From positions 66,001 to 130,000 of the forward strand of contig JAKAVQ010000006.1 of assembly GCA_021817245.1 (NCBI GenBank): DNA of 64,000 nucleotides. The letters run 5' to 3'. Every line of letters begins with the position of its first letter. The stretch's first letter is position 1. The translations under genes were made by a program, and so were the position numbers. This stretch comes from Thermoplasmata archaeon. GTDB lineage: Archaea; Thermoplasmatota; Thermoplasmata; Lutacidiplasmatales; UBA184. The notes beneath the pieces are model-generated. The model was not told the origin of the DNA. It did not search any database and worked only from the letters and a program-made list of their open reading frames with translations. Below, in pieces: positions 5,048 through 44,569 of this stretch.

Positions 5048-7948
5048 CTAGGAGGACGGGCCGGCGCCCGGCTTTACAAGGTAGAACGCGGGACGCCCCG
5101 GCCGCGCTCGCTCCCGGCGCCCCAGCGGGTCGCGGGAGGCCGCCTCTGCCTCGCGGAGTACGGAGACCGCGCGGAACCCGAACCGGGCGGCCAGGTACCC
5201 CTCCGCCGCCCGCAGGGTCCCGACCTCGTCGACCGCGGGTCCTTCCAACGGCGGCTCGGAGCGCAGGAGCGGGCCGATCCGTTGAACGTAGCGGGCCACC
5301 TCGGACCGGTGCGCGGCGACCTCGGGATCGGTCGTTCCCCGCTCGAGGATCGCTCGGATCGAGGGCGACTCGCCGCGCTCGACGGCCTCCCGCATCCACC
5401 GTTCGACATTCGACTTCCACGGCTCGGCGACATAGAAGAGCACCTCTTCGGGCACCCGCTCGCCCCGATCGGTGGCGAGTCGGACGACCGACCTTAGGTC
5501 GTCCTCGACGCGCTCGAGGTAGGCTTCGCGGGCCTCCGCGACCGGAGAGAGGGGGAAGTCCTCGGGCGACGGGAGCGGCTGGACCGCGACGAGCCCACCG
5601 AACCGGCCGGCCCCAAGCTCCTCCGCCAGATGTGGGACGATCGGAGCGACGAGTCGGAGCCACGCCGACCCGACACGGTCGCTCGCGCCCCCGGGCGTCC
5701 CGCCGCGGGCGTAGTACCGCTTGAGGAGCGTGGGAAGCGCGACGCACGTAAGCTCGGAGGCGCCGCGGAGGTCGCTCGCCGCGTACGCCGAGCGCACGTC
5801 GCCGATCAACCGGTGCATGCGGGAGGCGAGCCAGGCATCCAGTTCAGGGGGGCCCTCTCCATCGCCGCGACTCTCTCGGATCATGCGCTCGACCTCGTTC
5901 AGTCGGTCGCGCGCCGCGTCGACGAGCCCGGGGTCCCACGCCGCGTCGTGGGCCGGGGACGTCGCGATGAGGTAGTAGAGGCGGAGCGGGTCCGGCCCCC
6001 ACTCGGTGAGCGCCGCCTCGATCGAAGGGATCCGCCCCCCCTTCGCGCCGACGTCCTTCTTCGAGAGCTTGTCGCCCGCGGGTCCGGTGATCCAGTTGTG
6101 CACGAAGATCCCCTTCGGTCGGAGCTCCTCGGGAAGGAGCTTCGCGTGGGTGTAGAGGAAGACCGGGAAGTGGACCCGCTTGTGCTCCTTCCCACCGAGG
6201 TTGAGGTCGAGGGGATACCAGTACAGGAATTCCTCGCGGACCTCCTGCTGGAGCCGTCGGTCGACCGTCGGCTCACCCTCCCCGGAGCCGCGAAAGACGT
6301 AGTCGAAGAACGCCTCGCTGAGCTGTTCGGTCTTCAGGCGCCCGGTGCTGACGAACCGCCGGACGACGAAGTACGCCATGTAGAACGTGGAGTCGGCGAT
6401 CGGCTCGATGGTCCAGTCCGGGTCGAACGGGAACGGAGTGCCGAGCCACCGACCGCGGCGCGTGCACGGCCGGTCGTCATACCAGTCCAGGATCCCGGAG
6501 AGCTCGGCTCCGTACTCGGGGGGGACCGTGGTGAGCCGCTCGGCGAGCCCAAGGGTCGCTCGCTTCCAGTCCGGGTCTCCGTAGTGGAGGAACCACTGGT
6601 CCGGAACGCGGCGGATCACCACTTCGTGGCCATTGCGGCAGATCACGGGGATCGAGAACTCCTGGAGCTCGAACCCCCGCCCCTCCTTCGTGAGCTCGGA
6701 TGCGACCCTCTCCCGCGCCTCCCGGACCGGGACGCCCGAAAGCGGGGGGACGTTCATCCGGCCCCGCACGAACTCGAGGCGGTAGAGTCGCTCGGTCGCC
6801 GCAGCGAGCTGCTCGCGGTCGGCAAGTCTCATTACGCCGGTCGCCCGGAGCGCGCGCTCCGCGAGCGTGCCTTCCCCCGCCGTGAGCTCCCGCTCGGAGG
6901 GAGTGAGTCCCTCGGGCCGGGGGACCTCGATGAGGATCGGCGGAGGGCCAAGCTCCGCGCGCATCGGCTCCGGTAGCTCGGCGATCGCCGCGGCGTCGGC
7001 GGGCGCATGCGCCGGTACGCTCATCACGACCCCCGTGCCGATCGTGGGATCGACGAGCGGGCTCTCGAGCACCGGTACCGAAACCTCGCGCAGCGGGACC
7101 CGAACGCGCCGACCGACGATCTCGGCGGCCGGGACCTCGTGGCCGAGTCGGCCCCCGTGCTGCTCGACCAGGTGCTCCGCCCCCTTTCGCCCGACGAGGT
7201 AGGCGCGCTCTCCGTGATGCCAAACCACGAGCGTAGCGCCGGGCGCGACCCACAGGTTGGTCACGCCGTAGACCGTCTCGGGGCGCAGGGTCGCGGTGAG
7301 CAGCGCTCGGCCGTCCTCGAGCGGGAAGGCGACCGCGGTGTAACGCAGCGTTTCCGCGGTCCCGCCCGTGGAGAGGTCGGTCTCGGAGGGATCGACGGCG
7401 ACCGGTCCGCAGACCGGGCAGACCGGTGAGTAGTGAGTCCCCTGCACGAGGGCTCCTGCTGCGCGGAGGGCGTGGAACTGCCACCGCACGAACGCGCGGT
7501 AGTCCTCGTCGATGGTGGTGACGTACGTCGATTCGTCGACCAGCGCGCCGATCGAGCGCAGCACGCGCCGGTACGATTCGCCGAGGAAGCGGGCCGCCGC
7601 CTCGGGCTCTTCGAGGGCGGGCCAGTCCGAGGAAGGGACGTGCTCGATCTCGAGCAGGTGCACGGTCGTCGGGTCCCGGTCGCGCACCTTCCGCGAAAAG
7701 GTCACCGCCGGTATGCCGGAGGCGTGGACGCCGAACGGAAAGAGGACCTCCTGGCCGAGCATCCGGTGGTATCGGTGGAGGGCATCCGCGTACACGAGGG
7801 CGAGCAGATGGCCGACGTGGAAGAACCCGCTCGTGCCCGGATAGGCGACGAGCGCGAAGTACTTCTCCCGGCCGGGCACCCGGTGCCCGCTCGCGAGGCC
7901 GGCCTTCGCCCAGGCCTCTTGCCAGTGACGGGCCCTCGCGGGATCCAT
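5048..7948 (-). CDS. leuS: Leucine--tRNA ligase (archaeal type)
   Basis: Class-I aaRS HVGH (FFHVGHLLA) and KMSKS-like (KLSKKDVGAKGGRIPSIEAA) motifs; about 966 aa from the internal Met at 7948 (the ORF extends to 8035). Confidence 0.9.
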   Translation of the reverse strand: MDPARARHWQEAWAKAGLASGHRVPGREKYFALVAYPGTSGFFHVGHLLALVYADALHRYHRMLGQEVLFPFGVHASGIPAVTFSRKVRDRDPTTVHLLEIEHVPSSDWPALEEPEAAARFLGESYRRVLRSIGALVDESTYVTTIDEDYRAFVRWQFHALRAAGALVQGTHYSPVCPVCGPVAVDPSETDLSTGGTAETLRYTAVAFPLEDGRALLTATLRPETVYGVTNLWVAPGATLVVWHHGERAYLVGRKGAEHLVEQHGGRLGHEVPAAEIVGRRVRVPLREVSVPVLESPLVDPTIGTGVVMSVPAHAPADAAAIAELPEPMRAELGPPPILIEVPRPEGLTPSERELTAGEGTLAERALRATGVMRLADREQLAAATERLYRLEFVRGRMNVPPLSGVPVREARERVASELTKEGRGFELQEFSIPVICRNGHEVVIRRVPDQWFLHYGDPDWKRATLGLAERLTTVPPEYGAELSGILDWYDDRPCTRRGRWLGTPFPFDPDWTIEPIADSTFYMAYFVVRRFVSTGRLKTEQLSEAFFDYVFRGSGEGEPTVDRRLQQEVREEFLYWYPLDLNLGGKEHKRVHFPVFLYTHAKLLPEELRPKGIFVHNWITGPAGDKLSKKDVGAKGGRIPSIEAALTEWGPDPLRLYYLIATSPAHDAAWDPGLVDAARDRLNEVERMIRESRGDGEGPPELDAWLASRMHRLIGDVRSAYAASDLRGASELTCVALPTLLKRYYARGGTPGGASDRVGSAWLRLVAPIVPHLAEELGAGRFGGLVAVQPLPSPEDFPLSPVAEAREAYLERVEDDLRSVVRLATDRGERVPEEVLFYVAEPWKSNVERWMREAVERGESPSIRAILERGTTDPEVAAHRSEVARYVQRIGPLLRSEPPLEGPAVDEVGTLRAAEGYLAARFGFRAVSVLREAEAASRDPLGRRERARPGRPAFYLVKPGAGPSS

Positions 7949-37018: not shown

Positions 37019-38227
37019 ATGCCGCTCGCGACGGCAACGCCGCAGGCCGGCTTCGGAGGGCAGGTCGTGGAGGAGGTGAGGGTCGGCGAGCGGCGCACGC
37101 TCGACCGGCAGCGGTTCTCCCGGCTGTTCGAGGCGCTCGCGGGCGCGGGGTACTCGATCGTCGGACCGACCGTGCGCGATGGGGCGATCGTCTACGACCA
37201 GATCCGGTCGGTCGAGGACCTTCCGATCGGCTGGACGGACCGCCAGAGTGGGGGGAGCTACCGGCTCGAGCGGCGGGGCGACGCGGCGCTCTTCGGCTAC
37301 ACGGTCGGCCCGTCCTCCTGGAAGAAGTACCTCTTCCCCGCGCGAGAGCGCCTCTGGACAGCGACCCGCATCGGCGACTCGTTCACGGTCCGCCCCGAGC
37401 CGGTCGAGCCCACCCGGCTCGCCTTTTTCGGGATGCGGGCGTGCGAGCTTTCGGCGCTCGCCGTGACCGACCGCGTGTTCGCGGGCGGCCCGGTGACCGA
37501 CCCCGGCTACCGGACCCGGCGCTCCTCGATCCTGCGCATCGCAGTGCAGTGCGGGCAAGCGGGCGGGACCTGCTTCTGCGTCTCGATGGGCACGGGGCCC
37601 GGCGTACGGGATGGGGCGGACCTCGTGCTGACCGAGATCCTGGACGCGGGGCCGCACCGCTTCCTGCTCGAGCCACGGACCGAGGAGGGGGCCGCGGTCC
37701 TGTCGCGGATCGCCTCGGAGCTCGTGCCCGCCGCGGCGGGGGAGGCCCGCATCGCGGAGGCGATCGTCGCCCGGACGGCGGCGTCGATGGGCCGCACGAT
37801 GGAGGCGACCGGTCTCCGCGAGCTCCTCCGGGAGAATCTCGAACACCCGCGCTGGCAGCTCGTCGCGGCTCGCTGTCTCTCCTGTACCAACTGCACCATG
37901 GTCTGCCCCACGTGCTTTTGCAGCGCGCAGGAGGAGGTGCCGGACCTCGACGTCACGAAGGTCGAGCGCTGGCGACGCTGGGACTCCTGCTTCAACCTCG
38001 CGTTCACCGAGCTCCACGGGGCGAGCGTCCGCAAGACCGGCCTCTCCCGGTACCGTCAGTGGCTGACCCACAAGCTCGGGACCTGGCACGACCAGTTCGG
38101 CACGTCCGGTTGCGTCGGCTGCGGCCGCTGTATCACCTGGTGCCCGGTCGGGATCGACCTCACGGAAGAGATCGGGGCGATCCGCGCCGGCCCAGGGCCG
38201 GCGGCCGCACCGGGAGGGAAGCCGTGA
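37019..38227 (+). CDS. [NiFe]-hydrogenase-associated iron-sulfur subunit (sulfhydrogenase beta / AsrA-like), multiple 4Fe-4S sites
   Basis: 402 aa; CGQAGGTCFC, CLSCTNCTMVCPTCFC, CVGCGRCITWCP cysteine clusters. Confidence 0.7.
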   Translation: MPLATATPQAGFGGQVVEEVRVGERRTLDRQRFSRLFEALAGAGYSIVGPTVRDGAIVYDQIRSVEDLPIGWTDRQSGGSYRLERRGDAALFGYTVGPSSWKKYLFPARERLWTATRIGDSFTVRPEPVEPTRLAFFGMRACELSALAVTDRVFAGGPVTDPGYRTRRSSILRIAVQCGQAGGTCFCVSMGTGPGVRDGADLVLTEILDAGPHRFLLEPRTEEGAAVLSRIASELVPAAAGEARIAEAIVARTAASMGRTMEATGLRELLRENLEHPRWQLVAARCLSCTNCTMVCPTCFCSAQEEVPDLDVTKVERWRRWDSCFNLAFTELHGASVRKTGLSRYRQWLTHKLGTWHDQFGTSGCVGCGRCITWCPVGIDLTEEIGAIRAGPGPAAAPGGKP

Positions 38228-38694
38228 GCTCCCGGACGACGGAGGACTTTCGCGAGGCGGTCCGTCGGCACCCATTCCTCGAGGGCCTCGACCCGGCGTT
38301 CCTCGACGCGATGGTCCGCCTTGGGGTCGAACGTCGGTTCCGGGTGGATGAGCATCTGGCGCGCGAAGGTGCGCCCGCGAACGTGCTCTACATCCTCCTC
38401 GACGGAAAGGTCGCGCTCGAGGTCGGGGCCGCGGACCATCCGGCCCTCACCGTCCAGACGGTCGGGGCCGGCGAGGTCCTCGGCTGGTCCTGGCTCGTCG
38501 CGCCGTACCGCTGGCGCTTCGATGCCCGTGCGGTGAAGCCGGTGCATGCCGTGGAGATCGAAGGGGGGGCGCTGCGTCGTCTCCTCTCCGAGCACCCGGA
38601 CTGGGGCTACCAGTTCCTGCTGCGATTCCTTCCCGTCCTGGCCGAACGCCTCGAGAACACGCGCATCCAGCTCCTGGACATCCATGCTCGCTGA
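38224..38694 (+). CDS. Cyclic-nucleotide-binding (CAP/Crp effector-type) domain protein embedded in the hydrogenase operon
   Basis: About 156 aa; cNMP-binding fold pattern (VLYILLDGKVALEV...GAGEVLGWSWLVAPYRWRFDARAVKPVHAVEI...LLRFLPVLAERL); GTG start overlaps the hydB stop (GTGA) and the 3' end overlaps the hydG start. Confidence 0.6.
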   Translation: MSSRTTEDFREAVRRHPFLEGLDPAFLDAMVRLGVERRFRVDEHLAREGAPANVLYILLDGKVALEVGAADHPALTVQTVGAGEVLGWSWLVAPYRWRFDARAVKPVHAVEIEGGALRRLLSEHPDWGYQFLLRFLPVLAERLENTRIQLLDIHAR

Positions 38695-39550
38695 CGTGGC
38701 CCCGGACCCCACCAGTTCCGCCGCCGCCGGCCACCCGCTCGCCCCCCTCCCGTACCGGGTGCGCGCCGTGGCGACCGAGACCGCGGACACCACGACCCTC
38801 ACCATCGAGCCCCGTTCGACCCGTAGCGTTCCGGCCCCCGCCCCCGGCCAGTTCGTAATGTTGTACGCGTTCGGCGTCGGGGAATCCCCGATCGGGGTCA
38901 GCGCGCACCGCGCCGACGGCACCCTGGTCCACACGGTGCGGAACGTGGGGAAGGTGACGTCGGCGCTCGCCCGCCTCACTCCCGGAGACACGGTCGGCGT
39001 CCGCGGTCCGTACGGGAGGGGCTGGCCGCTTCAAGAGGCCCGGGGCCAGGACCTCGTGATCGTCGCGGGAGGCCTTGGCCTCCCGCCGCTCCGACCGGTA
39101 CTGTACGAGGTCTTCGAGAACCGGGACCGGTACGGGCGGGTCGAGGTCATCTACGGGGCGCGGACCCCCAAGGACCTCATCTACTACGAGGAGCTCCAGA
39201 GCTGGCGGCGACGCAGCGATCTGCGAATCCAGGTCACGGTCGACGCGGCGGGGCGAGACTGGTACGGTGACGTCGGGGTCGTTACGACCCGACTTCCCGA
39301 CGTGCGGTTCGACGGTTCCCGCACGTCCGCGTTCATCTGCGGCCCCGAGATCATGATGAGACTCACCGCCCAGGCCGTGGTCGCGCGGGGGGTCCGCCCC
39401 GAGGCCACCTGGGTCTCGATGGAGCGGAACATGAAATGCGCGGTGGCCCTCTGCGGGCACTGCCAGTTTGGCCCCACGTTCGTCTGCCGGGACGGTCCGG
39501 TGCTGAGCTACCGGGCGCTCGAGCCGTTCCTCGCGGTCAAGGAGGTGTAA
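38684..39550 (+). CDS. Hydrogenase gamma subunit (FAD/NAD(P)-binding oxidoreductase with 2Fe-2S; AsrB/HydG-like)
   Basis: 289 aa; ferredoxin-reductase-type FAD/NAD-binding fold plus C-terminal [17 protein letters not shown]. Confidence 0.75.
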
Positions 39551-39554
39551 GCTG

Positions 39555-40352
39555 GTGCCGGCCCCCCTCCGTCCCCGGTTGGCGGTCTGGAAGTTCGCCT
39601 CCTGCGACGGTTGCCAGCTCTCGGTCCTCGACCTCGAGGACGATCTGCTCGCCATCGCCGACCGGCTCGAGATCGCGAACTTCCGCGAGGCGTCGAGCGC
39701 CGTCGTCGACGGACCGTACGATCTTTCGCTGGTCGAGGGCTCGGTGACCACCCCCGAAGACGCCCGCCGGATCCGCGAGGTCCGGGCCGAGTCGCGGGTG
39801 CTCGTGACGATCGGCGCGTGTGCGACCGCCGGCGGGATCCAGTCGCTGCGCAACTTCGCCGAGTTCGAGGAGTTCCGCCGGGCCGTCTATGCCCGGCCCG
39901 AGTACCTCGACACGCTCGCGACATCGACCCCGATCGCCGACCACGTGCCGGTCGACTTCGAGCTGCGCGGTTGTCCGATCTCGAAACACCAGCTCCTCGA
40001 GGTCGTCTCGGCGTTCCTCCAGGGGCGCAGCCCGAACACCCCGAACGAGAGCGTCTGCATCGAGTGCAAGCGACGCGGCACGGTCTGCGTCCTCGTCGCG
40101 CGGGGTACCCCCTGCCTCGGGCCGGTCACCCAGGCCGGGTGCGGGGCGATCTGTCCCGCATTCGACCGCGGCTGCTACGGCTGCTTCGGACCCCAGGGCT
40201 CGCCGAACATTCCCTCCATGGTTGGCCGGCTCCACGAGCTCGGCATGACGCCGGGCGCCGTGCAGCGCGTCTTCCGTACCTACAACGCGATGGCCCCCGC
40301 GTTCAAGGGCGCGGCGGACGCCGCCGGAGCGGAGAAGGGGACCGAACCATGA
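39555..40352 (+). CDS. [NiFe] hydrogenase small (delta) subunit
   Basis: [24 protein letters not shown], cysteine-rich C-terminus ([21 protein letters not shown]...CYGCFGP). Confidence 0.8.
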
Positions 40353-42163
40353 CGGAGAGCGAGCGGACGATCACCGTCGACTACCTCGCGCGGGTCGAAG
40401 GGGAGGGCTCGCTTCGGGTCCGGCTGAGGGGCGAGACCGTCGAGGACGTCGAGCTGCGGATCTTCGAGCCTCCGCGCTTCTTCGAGGCGTTCCTCCGCGG
40501 CCGCTCCTACCTCGAGGCACCCGACATCACCGCGCGGATCTGCGGGATCTGCCCGGTCGCCTACCAGATGAGCAGCGCCCACGCGCTCGAGCGCGCGCTC
40601 GGTGTCACGGTCGGGGGTGCCCTCCGTGACCTCCGGCGGATCCTGTACTGCGGGGAGTGGGTGGAGAGCCACGCGCTCCACATCTACCTGCTCCACGCCC
40701 CCGACTTCCTCGGATACTCCGACGCCGTCCGGCTCGCGAAGGATCACCCCGACGCCGTCCGTCGGGGCCTGGCCCTGAAGAAGGCGGGCAACCACCTGAT
40801 GCAGGTCCTGGGCGGGCGGGAGATCCACCCGATCAACGTCCGGGTCGGCGGGTTCTACCGGGCGCCGAGCCGGGCGGAGCTCGACGCGCTGCGGCCCGAG
40901 CTCGAGCAGGCGCTCGAGATCGCTGAAGAGACCGTACGATTCACCGCCGGCTTCGATTTCCCCGAGATCGAGGAGGACTACGAGTTCGTCGCGCTGCGCC
41001 ACCCGGACGAGTATCCGATGAACGAGGGGGAGGTCGTCTCGAGCCACGGCGTTCGCCTGCCGATGGACCGGTTCGAGGAGGTCTTCGAGGAGGTCCAGGC
41101 CCCGTACTCGAACGCGCTCCAGTCCGTCCACAAGGGGGAGGGCTCCTACCTGGTGGGGCCGCTCGCGCGCTACGCGCTCAACTCCGATCGACTCCCCCCG
41201 CGGGCGAGGACCGCCGCCCGGGCCGCCGGGCTCGCACCGGTCGAGCGGAACCCGTACCGGAGCATCGTCGTGCGGTCGGTCGAGGTCGTCCTTGCGCTCG
41301 AGGAGGCGCTCCGCCTGATCGATCGGTACCGGCCGCCGGACGCCCCGTGCGTGCCGCTCCCGGCGACGTTCCCCGCGACCGGTGCCGCCTGGATCACCGA
41401 GGCCCCCCGGGGGATGCTCTACCACCGCTACCGGCTCCGGGCGGACGGGCTCATCGAGGAGGCGAAGATCGTCGCGCCGACCTCCCAGAACCAGAAGCGG
41501 ATCGAGGACGACCTGCGCCACCTGGTGGGAAAGTCGCTTCGGTGGGACGACGCGGCGCTCACCACGGCGTGCGAGCGCGCGGTCCGCAACCACGACCCGT
41601 GCATCTCCTGCGCGACGCACTTTCTCACCCTCGAGGTCGAGCGCATCCCGGAGGGGACGGGGGAATCCCCGGAAGCGAACCGGGCGGCGCCGACGCTCGT
41701 CGTCGGGCTCGGGCAGGAGGATCGCGGAGACGACCGGGCCGGGATCGAGGTCGTGCGCGTCCTGCGCCGACGGTTCCGCGGGACCGAAGTCGAGTTCCTC
41801 GAAGGACCCGCGGATGTCGCGCTGCTTCTCGACCGCTGGTCCGGCCGCGAGCGAACGATCGTGGTCGACGCGGTGCGCTCCGGTCGACCCGCGGGCACGA
41901 TCCAGGTGCTGGAGGTCCTGGGCGACCGCCTGCCGCCGACCTACGGCGGCTCCTCGACCCACGGGCTCGGCCTTGCCGAGGCCGTGGCGCTCGGCCGGGC
42001 GCTGGACCGCATGCCCCGCCACCTCACGATCTGGGGGATTGAGGTCGGCACGATCCGGATCGGGAGCCCCCCCTCCGGGCCGGTCCTCCGGGCGGTCGAG
42101 GACGTGACGGACCGCCTGGCGCGCGAGCTCGGCGGCCCCCGGCGCGCCGCGCGGGAGACCTGA
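40349..42163 (+). CDS. [NiFe] hydrogenase large (alpha) subunit fused in-frame to a HycI/HyaD-type maturation endopeptidase domain
   Basis: N-terminal Ni-binding RICGICP (L1) and C-terminal DPCISCATH (L2) motifs; 24-aa linker; then protease-like [21 protein letters not shown]...[15 protein letters not shown]; no stop codon between the two (604 aa total). Confidence 0.75.
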
Positions 42164-42176
42164 CGGAGGGCGCTCG

Positions 42177-42503
42177 GTGCACGAAGAGGCGCTGCTGCGG
42201 GACCTCGTCCGCAAGGTGGAAGAGGTTGCCCGGGCCCATCGGGTCGAGCGCGTCGAACGGGTGCGGCTCTGGGTCGGGGCGCTCTCCCACCTGACCGAAG
42301 GGACCCTCCGCGCCCGGTGGTCGATGGCGACCATCGGTTCGGTGGCCGAAGGTTCGGGGCTCGAAGTGGAGAGCTCCCTCGACGTCCACGACCCGCGGGC
42401 GCAGGGAGTCGTCCTGCAGAGCCTCACTCCCCGGAGCCCGTGGAAAGGGAGCGGGCATCCGCCGTCCGTAAGGGAAAAGCCCCCGGTTTCCCCGTCGAGT
42501 TAA
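42177..42503 (+). CDS. hypA: HypA-like hydrogenase nickel-insertion protein lacking the C-terminal zinc finger
   Basis: MHEEALLRDLV...ERVRLWVGALSHL...GSVAEGSGLEVE aligns with the HypA N-terminal Ni domain (MHE motif); the C-terminal 43 aa contain no cysteine. Confidence 0.5.
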   Translation: MHEEALLRDLVRKVEEVARAHRVERVERVRLWVGALSHLTEGTLRARWSMATIGSVAEGSGLEVESSLDVHDPRAQGVVLQSLTPRSPWKGSGHPPSVREKPPVSPSS

Positions 42504-42565: not shown

Positions 42566-42874
42566 ATGTGCCTGACCGTACCGGGCCGGATCGTGTTGAT
42601 CGAGGAGAGAGGAACCGAAGGGCGCTCCGCCGAGGTCGACTTCGGCGCCCTGCATCGACGGGCGAGCCTCCTGTACGTTCCCGAGGCGGCCGTCGGAGAC
42701 TTCGTGCTGGTCCAGGCCGGCTTCGCGGTGCGCCGCCTCACGGTCACCGAAGCGGAGGAGTCGCTCGCCTACCACCGGGAGCTCTCCGCGCTCTCGGCGG
42801 AGCCGGCGCGGTCGACGACCCAGGGAAACGCGGCGCGGGACCCCGCCACGCCCCCGCACGCAGGCGATCGATGA
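42566..42874 (+). CDS. hypC: Hydrogenase assembly chaperone HypC/HupF
   Basis: MCLTVPGRIVLIEE...AEVDFGALHRRASLLYV...GDFVLVQAGFAV: HypC MCL(A/G)(I/V)P N-terminus and fold. Confidence 0.75.
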   Translation: MCLTVPGRIVLIEERGTEGRSAEVDFGALHRRASLLYVPEAAVGDFVLVQAGFAVRRLTVTEAEESLAYHRELSALSAEPARSTTQGNAARDPATPPHAGDR

Positions 42875-43824
42875 CCGATCGCGCGTCCTGGGTAGGACCC
42901 GGTGTCCTCCTCGTCTTCCTGACCGCGCTCGTGAGCGGGGTCTCCACGTTCGTGAACGCGTTCGCGGTCCAGGGGGCGAGCTCCGACGCCTTCGTCACGA
43001 TCCGCAATCTGGTCGTCGCGGCCGCCCTCGTGCCGGTCGCCCTCGTCACCCGCCGGGCGCTGCGCGCGCCGTCGCTGCGCCTCGTCGACTGGGCGCGGCT
43101 CGTCTCGATCGGACTTCTCGGCGGGGCGATCCCGTTCCTCCTCTTCTTCCACGGGCTCGAGCTCGCGGCCCGCGCCGGGGGCGCCGCCACGGCGTCGTTC
43201 GGTTACCGGACCCTGTTCCTCTGGGCGGGCGTGCTCGCCGCGGTCGGGCTCCGCGAACGACTTCCCCGCCGCGCCCTTCTGGCGGCGGGGCTCCTGCTCG
43301 CCGGGAACGTTCTCCTCCTCGCGCTCACGAGCCCGATCTGGACCGACGGGACCGCCTACGTCCTGGCCGCGACCGGGCTTTGGGCCGTCGAGTACACGCT
43401 GTCCAAGCGGACCCTGCGCGATCTCGCGCCCGCGACCGTCGCGGCCGGGCGGATGGGCTTCGGCGCGCTGTTCCTGGCGGGATACCTCGGGTTCACGGCG
43501 CAGTGGGGCCACGTCGCGGACTTCTCGGGCGGCGATTGGGCCTGGGTCGGGATCAGCGCGGCCTTCCTCCTCGCCTTCGTCGCGTGCTGGTACACCGGCC
43601 TCCAGCGGGTCGACCTGGGTTCCGCGACGAGCGTCCTCGTCCTCGGCTTCCCCATCACCTGGTGCCTCGGGGTCCTTGTCCAGGGGCAGGGACTGTCGCT
43701 CGAGTCCGCGCTGGGGGCGTTGGCCGTGGTGCTCGGCGCCGTGATCGCGGTCGGCTCCACCGCCTTCCGCGCGACCCGCCGGTACCTCTCCGGGGTGCTC
43801 CGTCCCTCGGTCGCGGCGACCTAG
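42871..43824 (+). CDS. EamA/DMT-family transporter
   Basis: 318 aa; ten TM helices arranged as two EamA repeats. Confidence 0.7.
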   Translation: MTDRASWVGPGVLLVFLTALVSGVSTFVNAFAVQGASSDAFVTIRNLVVAAALVPVALVTRRALRAPSLRLVDWARLVSIGLLGGAIPFLLFFHGLELAARAGGAATASFGYRTLFLWAGVLAAVGLRERLPRRALLAAGLLLAGNVLLLALTSPIWTDGTAYVLAATGLWAVEYTLSKRTLRDLAPATVAAGRMGFGALFLAGYLGFTAQWGHVADFSGGDWAWVGISAAFLLAFVACWYTGLQRVDLGSATSVLVLGFPITWCLGVLVQGQGLSLESALGALAVVLGAVIAVGSTAFRATRRYLSGVLRPSVAAT

Positions 43825-43825
43825 G

Positions 43826-44569
43826 ATGGCGGAGGACGGGGCCGCGCTCTGCGCCCGCTTCAGCCTCGCGACCAATCGGCTGCAGTACTGCGGCCCGAAC
43901 GATGCCGAGGGACCGCTCTACCGGGCGATCGTGGAGGGGACCGACCTCGACCGCGCCCGAAACGCGCTGCGGCGCTTCGAGGCGCTGTATCCGTATCTCG
44001 CGGCGATCGGGGAGCGGCACCAGCTTGACCCGTTCGACGCCCGGGTCGTCGAGGCGTACTGGATCGGAAACCGACTGCTCGACGACTTCGGGCGCGAGCG
44101 GTTCATCGCGCTCCTTCACACGCTCGGCCGTCGGGGCCTTCCCCCCCGCACGGTGGATCGCCTGGTGGCCCACCTCCCCGAGCGCCCGCTGCCGCATCAC
44201 GCGTTCCACGTGGCGTACGTCGGAGTCGGCGAGGTGACGGGTCATGTGCCGACCACGCTCGCGAACCTTGAGGCGTGCCGTCCGGCACCCGCCCGGGTGA
44301 CCCGGTGCTTGCCGGGAGAGCTCGAAGTCGAACGACGCCCGCTCGTGGTCGACGGAGGCCGACTGGAGCTGGGACCTCCGACGCGGGAGCGGCGGCCGTT
44401 CGACCCGCGCATCGTTCCGGAGCCGAGGGTCGGCGACTGGGTGGCCCTCCACTGGGGCCATCCGGCCCTCCTCCTGCACGAGGCTCAACGGGCCGCGCTC
44501 GAGGAGTACACCCGTCGGTCGATCGCCGCGGCGAACGAGGCGCTTCCGGCGCTACGAACGCTGCGGTAA
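43826..44569 (+). CDS. Conserved hypothetical protein
   Basis: 247-aa ORF translationally coupled to the upstream transporter gene; no recognised motif. Confidence 0.4.
   Translation: MAEDGAALCARFSLATNRLQYCGPNDAEGPLYRAIVEGTDLDRARNALRRFEALYPYLAAIGERHQLDPFDARVVEAYWIGNRLLDDFGRERFIALLHTLGRRGLPPRTVDRLVAHLPERPLPHHAFHVAYVGVGEVTGHVPTTLANLEACRPAPARVTRCLPGELEVERRPLVVDGGRLELGPPTRERRPFDPRIVPEPRVGDWVALHWGHPALLLHEAQRAALEEYTRRSIAAANEALPALRTLR

Follow-up and report, generated by a model that had tools for sequence, protein, structure and literature searches.

We analysed a 64,000-nucleotide stretch of DNA from a Thermoplasmata archaeon (GenBank assembly GCA_021817245.1, contig JAKAVQ010000006.1, forward-strand positions 66,001 to 130,000), referred to here as the window, and examined a [NiFe]-hydrogenase gene within it. 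The maturation of [NiFe] hydrogenases ends when a dedicated protease trims the large subunit in a nickel-dependent step. At this locus, the large subunit and a protease of this type are encoded by one gene. The original prediction, made from the DNA letters, held that the large subunit runs in frame into a complete protease-like domain. Consistent with that prediction, a single open reading frame (ORF) of 604 codons followed by a stop contains 0 internal stop codons and encodes one chain that matches both NiFeSe_Hases (E 7e-26) and HycI (PF01750) in Pfam. The start codon of this frame, ATG, shares nucleotides with the stop of the small-subunit gene. The fused gene and its parts are listed in window coordinates, with lengths in amino acids (aa).

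40349..42163, plus strand: fused large subunit and HybD/HycI-type endopeptidase, 604 aa, 66.9 kDa (ORF translation, Pfam)
40349..41620, plus strand: large-subunit (HyhL-like) domain, residues 1-424, predicted mature mass 47.5 kDa (Pfam, Pyrococcus furiosus alignment)
40535..40564, plus strand: N-terminal Ni-Fe ligand motif, which includes RICGIC, with Cys65 and Cys68
41594..41620, plus strand: C-terminal Ni-Fe ligand motif DPCISCATH, residues 416-424, with Cys418, Cys421 and His424
His424/Phe425 bond: predicted cleavage site, placed according to PMC2865534 and PMC12134894
41621..41647, plus strand: 9-residue cleavable tail FLTLEVERI, residues 425-433, by its match to the tail of split relatives
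41648..41692, plus strand: 15-residue read-through linker, residues 434-448, with low AlphaFold2 confidence
41693..42160, plus strand: endopeptidase domain, residues 449-604, 16.8 kDa (Pfam HycI, HybD-like alpha/beta/alpha fold)
41732..41734, plus strand: Asp462, equivalent to Glu16 of Escherichia coli HybD, first metal ligand, in the GDD motif
41867..41869, plus strand: Asp507, equivalent to HybD Asp62, in VVDAV
41960..41962, plus strand: His538, equivalent to HybD His93, in SSTHGLGL

Endopeptidases of this family are usually separate proteins of ~150-170 aa, whereas here no stop or start codon lies between the two domains. The prediction had also held that no plausible internal start precedes the GDD region, and this proved correct. 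Among codons 416-480, the sole in-frame ATG, GTG or TTG is the GTG at codon 469. This codon lies downstream of the GDD motif, so a product starting there would lack the first metal ligand, and an internal translation start for the protease was therefore ruled out. When five stand-alone proteases served as tblastn queries, the 64-kb window gave no second protease gene. The capacity to make the protease as a separate product is gone, and one chain carries both the substrate site and an intact protease. The predicted scissile bond, His424-Phe425, sits on this polypeptide 24 residues before the first strand of the protease. On the minus strand, a 715-aa ORF (40280..42427) spans the entire fused gene. 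It has no family support, and we rejected it as a gene, since it is best explained as an artefact of the 69% GC content.

The large-subunit domain matches PF00374 with 91.7 bits (cut-off 25.8). Both CxxC pairs of the Ni-Fe site are present, one in RICGIC (Cys65, Cys68) and one in DPCISCATH (Cys418, Cys421), together with His424; the subunit thus ends in the motif with which the prediction had closed it. The best solved relatives are P. furiosus SHI alpha (E 1e-68) and Thermococcus kodakarensis HyhL, with group 3c, 3d and 3a enzymes behind them. In the P. furiosus SHI alpha structure 9e15, the mature chain stops at residue 424, which aligns with His424 of the window protein. An AlphaFold2 model of the full-length chain has a predicted local distance difference test score (pLDDT) of 88 and a predicted template modelling score (pTM) of 0.76, and Foldseek aligns it to SHI alpha with template modelling (TM) scores of 0.88-0.91. 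Genes of the hyhB, hyhG and hyhS types lie directly upstream, as expected of a group 3b operon. The closest PDB matches and the operon content point to a group 3b large subunit of the HyhL or sulfhydrogenase alpha type.

P. furiosus SHI alpha (PF0894; PDB 9nez, 9e15) is also a group 3b subunit and is the best solved-structure match (TM ~0.9), but its tail is 4 residues long (VVRL) and its protease FrxA (PF0975) is made separately, from a gene at another place in the genome. T. kodakarensis HyhL (PDB 5yxy, 5yy0) is homologous to the window subunit, but T. kodakarensis uses two separate polypeptides.

Alignment to hydrogenase profiles had been proposed as a check on the prediction. The C-terminal part passes it: residues 466-590 align to positions 1-127 of the 130 in the HycI profile, with 37.8 bits against a cut-off of 23. 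The domain also matches E. coli HybD (1cfz) with an E-value of 4.6e-8, and HybD residues Glu16, Asp62 and His93 align to Asp462, Asp507 and His538. Most members of the family have two Asp and one His as metal ligands, and these three positions are invariant in 56 aligned protease homologues and 11 fused proteins. The full-length model retrieved large subunits only in Foldseek, and we therefore modelled residues 425-604 separately. The top 10 PDB matches of this model (pLDDT 86, pTM 0.80) are HybD, HycI or related hydrogenase maturation peptidases, with TM scores of 0.66-0.77. Among them, T. kodakarensis Tk-HybD (PDB 5ija) shares a homologous protease fold at a TM score of 0.77. Judged by sequence, metal ligands and predicted fold, the C-terminal 156 residues are an intact maturation endopeptidase.

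Between the two domains, the prediction had described a linker of 24 residues. That length is right, but the segment is not one unit: it consists of a 9-residue tail that is ordinary for the clade and 15 new read-through residues. In the full-length model, residues 425-433 are predicted to form a beta-strand, and residues 434-448 have low confidence, as for a flexible tether. The predicted strand resembles the immature C-terminal tail of T. kodakarensis HyhL, which forms a beta-strand (PMC12134894). The E. coli HybC/HybD and Salmonella HydB-HydD/HyaD systems use the same nickel-dependent endopeptidase family. They differ from the window in that they serve group 1 uptake hydrogenases, have 15-residue tails, and associate non-covalently rather than within a single chain.

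Several lines of evidence bear on whether the fusion is authentic. The cluster of the fused protein at 90% identity holds five distinct sequences from NCBI and ENA assemblies, all 604 aa long and at least 99% identical. Assemblies that carry the fusion include GCA_027316005.1 (L001), GCA_027315965.1 (L002) and ERZ27237336 (L005). L001 and L002 are 99.4-99.5% identical to the window over 13.8 kb, and within the fused gene they differ from it by 12 single-nucleotide polymorphisms that leave the frame open. The fused gene of L005, from ENA, is identical to that of the window. Codon 434, at the former stop position, is polymorphic, reading CCG in the window and GCG in the other strain, and codon 441 is likewise polymorphic between the two strains. 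Because five variants, several assemblies and two strains share the fusion, it is not an assembly error. These data indicate that the fusion is common to at least two strains ~0.5% apart and was assembled independently several times.

The closest relatives show how the fusion came about. The 119 next-best large-subunit homologues among the matches listed (69-83% identity) are all 429-436 aa long, and several of them are labelled Thermoplasmata archaeon. In the nearest split operons (L003 and L004 from soil metagenome PRJEB21930; L006 from GCA_021816865.1; L007), a large subunit of 431-435 aa is accompanied by a separate HycI-family protease of 166-171 aa. The large subunits are 79-83% and the proteases 51-58% identical to those of the window, and the DPCISC..H motif and 9-residue tail are as in the window. 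The window and these relatives share one gene order: Fer4_22 subunit, cNMP-binding gene, NAD/FAD subunit, small subunit, large subunit and protease (the last two joined in the window), and then hypA, hypC, EamA and DUF6390. Unlike the window, the split operons have a stop codon 9-13 residues past the histidine, and the protease has its own start. That start lies 12 nucleotides (L003) or 6 nucleotides (L006) past the large-subunit stop, in the same reading frame, or the two genes overlap by 4 nucleotides (L007).

Aligned across the junction, relatives read ...HFLKLDLDRA-TAG-GGGGGCGAAGCG-ATG..., whereas in the window every codon of this segment is a sense codon and the segment is shorter by one codon. 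The segment FLTLEVERI fits the FLxLxxxRx tail that stands before the stop in split relatives, and the 15-residue linker derives from what used to be the stop codon, the spacer and the leader of the protease. That leader is hypervariable in relatives, which prevents an exact reconstruction of the mutations at the junction. On a subunit tree, the fused pair of the window is nested inside split Thermoplasmata. These results indicate that the fusion is the derived state, in which the hyhL stop codon and the protease start codon were lost between adjacent genes. The fusion in the window lineage is young, lineage-specific and possibly near-neutral.

We then consider how common the architecture is. 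In a scan of one genome per GTDB species, we took the best 80 loci with a group 3b-type subunit C-terminus beside a protease. Seventy-eight were split and 2 were fused, the latter from a Thiohalobacter metagenome-assembled genome (MAG; L064) and a gammaproteobacterial MAG, Dive96_bin3.258 (L068). The 80 loci included no cultured carrier of the fusion. The tail is exactly 9 residues long in 64 of the 78 split loci. Together with the uniform length of the 119 homologues, this bears out the suggestion that the fusion is not the standard arrangement for group 3 hydrogenases. All 53 nearest homologues of the protease domain stand alone (141-204 aa), in a protease-only search that missed the window's own cluster. 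A word-indexed profile search for fused proteins missed that cluster too, as well as P0127, P0151 and P0241; it returned mostly fragments and was unusable for counting.

A junction-spanning query (residues 370-604) was also put through an exhaustive search of 1.84 billion representative proteins. Among its top 150 matches, both halves are covered in the full-length proteins P0127 (620 aa), P0151 (610 aa) and P0241 (600 aa), and in about nine further fragments. P0127 (locus L090) and P0151 (L091, GCA_028285285.1) sit in complete hyhBGSL-type operons. The fusions in other lineages (L064, L068, P0127, P0151, P0241) combine a group 3b-type subunit, a 9-residue tail, a linker of ~9-35 residues and a three-ligand protease, but their subunits are merely 41-57% identical to that of the window. 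The tether in the other fused proteins ranges from ~12 to ~43 residues. In a neighbour-joining tree of 80 subunit domains, fused genes occupy five separate places and their nearest neighbours are all split. Since each fused gene lies among split relatives, the tree points to independent origins, and on this evidence the fusion arose independently at least five times.

Not every database entry with both parts was counted. P0212 and P0278 (310-340 aa, a subunit C-terminus plus a protease) were set aside because they come from frameshift-fragmented operons in long-read assemblies. Such entries inflate the apparent number of fusions. Two long-read metagenome assemblies, L088 and L089, contain the hydrogenase operon in many short ORFs, and one contig is labelled as having 1.98x coverage; they give rise to proteins of 320-340 aa in which a subunit C-terminus is joined to a protease. 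P0202, P0217 and P0295 were rejected as frameshift-like garbage sequence. P0128 (196 aa) has the reverse order, with the first ~105 protease residues followed by the last ~90 large-subunit residues, and is probably a chimeric assembly or a deletion product.

The original prediction had suggested looking for the same fusion in related genomes. The fusion is present in a population at least 99% identical and in unrelated lineages, and the closest split relatives lack it. Beyond what had been predicted, these data indicate that a stop and a start codon were lost recently and in this lineage alone, and that the architecture is rare but not unique.

We also compared substitution rates across the fused gene. 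Between the window and split relatives, the subunit has a ratio of non-synonymous to synonymous substitution rates (dN/dS) of 0.20-0.28 and the protease one of 0.42-0.48; these values span the whole branch and not solely the time since fusion. Between pairs of split proteases, dN/dS is 0.36-0.59, and the value for the window protease falls within this range. Between the two gammaproteobacterial fused genes (L064 and L068), identity is 78% for the subunit and 45% for the tail, and the tail dN/dS is 0.29. Both keep a tether of ~24-25 residues and all three ligands. These comparisons argue that the gammaproteobacterial fused layout is old and has persisted under purifying selection. In that pair the fusion is old and conserved, whereas the window fusion belongs to one species-level population.

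The hyhL-protease gene fusion is real, and we consider it probable that its product is a precursor cleaved after His424 by the protease domain. Related systems suggest how this could work. SHI alpha needs a short tail to be cleaved off by a HybD-like protease (PMC2865534). Cleavage requires nickel in its correct position, and two Asp and one His lie in the cleft of the protease (PMC12134894). Non-covalent complexes of hydrogenase subunit and protease can be stable, and the protease docks on the cofactor-loaded subunit without requiring the C-terminal extension (PMC5299533).

Under the favoured reading, the 66.9-kDa product would be a precursor. Hyp proteins would first load Fe(CN)2CO and nickel, and the protease domain would then recognise the nickel-loaded active site via Asp462, Asp507 and His538. 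It would cut after His424, like separate HybD/FrxA-type proteases. The products would be a normal 424-residue, 47.5-kDa subunit and a 19.4-kDa fragment consisting of a 24-residue leader and the protease. The trimmed subunit would close around the cofactor and pair with the small subunit. The fusion would fix the supply of protease at 1:1 and tie its production to hyhL translation. By estimate, the 24-residue tether should be long enough for cleavage in cis. Because cleavage would separate the halves, the fusion would cost little, and because it would restore the two usual proteins, loss of the stop codon would be easily tolerated. Easy tolerance fits rare, scattered, independent fusions and a young, possibly neutral event here.

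Several points weigh against this reading. Cleavage is predicted from homology. In the window lineage, the fusion is confined to one population that is at least 99% identical, so selection since the fusion is not measurable. Within that population, the subunit domain carries 4 synonymous and 1 non-synonymous polymorphisms, and the linker plus protease carry 2 and 5; the latter hint at relaxed constraint, although the sites are few and the difference is not significant (Fisher p = 0.24). Finally, error-rich long-read assemblies are the source of some fusions that databases list for other lineages, and these may be artefacts of indels.

Other explanations were weighed against the same evidence. 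A sequencing or assembly artefact, either a missed stop codon or an indel, is extremely unlikely. The source is metagenome-assembled, and some other database fusions do come from frameshift-fragmented operons in low-coverage long-read assemblies, but here the open frame is equal in length in the five variants, across NCBI and ENA assemblies and on two haplotypes. Furthermore, the junction differs from that of relatives by many substitutions and a whole-codon length change with no frameshift, and the protease start codon is gone too. It is also very unlikely that the chain is a permanent two-domain subunit in which the protease-like domain stays as a structural or regulatory appendage. Both domains are confidently folded in the full-length AlphaFold2 model (pTM 0.76), as such an appendage would allow. 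However, all catalytic ligands are kept, although a domain with a purely structural role would not be expected to keep them. Confidence in the predicted linker is low, and in characterised enzymes an uncleaved tail blocks active-site closure and assembly (PMC12134894, PMC2865534). Decay, in which a recent lesion impairs or blocks maturation and the hydrogenase is becoming a pseudogene in the population, is unlikely. The youth of the fusion, its restriction to one population and the mostly non-synonymous polymorphism of linker and protease would suit it. Against it, all operon genes examined are intact ORFs with their Pfam domain in both strains, and none of the four Ni-Fe cysteines, His424 or the three protease ligands has been lost. 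The subunit domain favours synonymous over non-synonymous polymorphism, the fusion persists in two diverged strains and several samples, and fused homologues elsewhere are under purifying selection.

A further possibility refines the favoured reading, and its probability overlaps with that reading: obligate cis-autoprocessing fixed by selection, in which the tethered protease would dock in cis on its own nickel-loaded subunit and cut no chain but its own, once per molecule. We regard this as possible but doubtful. The spacing of 24 residues between substrate bond and protease on a single chain agrees with it, as do the five or more independent origins and the purifying selection in a gammaproteobacterial clade whose tether is similar (~24-25 residues). 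Loss of the protease start codon also makes the fusion the sole route to the protease. However, the present results do not tell cleavage in cis, which the original prediction had suggested, from cleavage of one precursor by another or from cleavage by protease that has already been released, and the tether varies from ~12 to ~43 residues across the other fused proteins. The rarity of the fusion (2 of 80 species representatives; 0 of the 53 nearest protease homologues) fits tolerated accidents better than a strong advantage. The advantage that would go with cis cleavage is put forward just as tentatively: the stoichiometry would be guaranteed, maturation would be quicker or more faithful, and the large subunit would not pair with the small subunit too early. 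If self-processing were obligate, the repeated origins might reflect selection for a built-in 1:1 maturation checkpoint, which we again hold to be a minority prospect.

The rest of the operon surrounds the fused gene on the same strand.

37019..38227, plus strand: hyhB-like iron-sulfur subunit (Fer4_22), first gene of the operon (Pfam)
38224..38694, plus strand: cNMP-binding-domain gene (PF00027), 156 aa (position carried over from L001, offset 34348)
38684..39550, plus strand: hyhG-like NAD(P)/FAD and Fe-S subunit (NAD_binding_1, DHODB_Fe-S_bind; Pfam)
39555..40352, plus strand: hyhS-like small subunit (Oxidored_q6; Pfam)
42177..42503, plus strand: hypA-like gene, 108 aa, no cysteines (Pfam)
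42566..42874, plus strand: hypC (Pfam)

The cNMP-binding gene lies between the hyhB- and hyhG-like genes and overlaps both. It is outside the textbook hyhBGSL set but occupies the same operon position in all related operons examined (L001, L003, L006 and L007, plus the distant L090 and L091). Its product could be an extra subunit or a regulator. The Pfam HypA match of the HypA homologue covers positions 1-66 of 112 only. The protein is devoid of cysteine and therefore lacks the usual zinc-binding CxxC pairs, but the N-terminal MHE nickel motif is kept. Its relatives are alike, at 89-108 aa (L003 7289-7615, with VHE instead of MHE; L006 4835-5104). After hypC come genes for an EamA-family transporter and a DUF6390 protein, in the window (42871-44569, plus strand), in L001 (8523-10221) and in the distant fused L090 (6084-7849), which suggests that their link with the hydrogenase cluster is conserved. 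In L090, whose fusion is independent, hypC (5854-6087) directly follows the fused gene with no hypA between them, unlike in the window.

Taken singly, the two halves of the fused protein are ordinary representatives of well-known families, and the novelty is their joining. To our knowledge, trimming is structurally the least understood of the maturation steps. No description of a natural fusion between a hydrogenase subunit and its protease was found in the open-access full text searched, which is not proof of absence. Proteins with both Pfam domains are already in public databases, unremarked. In a 2025 review of maturation (PMC12134894), the words "fused" and "fusion" are absent. That review and PMC5299533 describe structures of proteases alone and an isolated protease-subunit complex, and no structure of a complex.

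The fusion shows, at least for those lineages that have conserved it, that a folded domain of 19 kDa can be attached to the tail of a hydrogenase. For annotation, "large subunits" of ~600 aa of the fused kind should not be dismissed as errors, and the absence of a separate protease gene in a genome with the fusion is no gap. Because cleavage would restore the two usual proteins, the biological consequence in the window archaeon is probably small. A natural single chain poses the question of cis versus trans cleavage in a form answerable with simple mutants, and a fused chain with one ligand mutated is a ready construct to trap the subunit-protease complex for structure determination. The fusion is of value mainly as a natural way into the protease-subunit step of hydrogenase maturation, which is structurally unresolved, and secondly as an annotation caveat.

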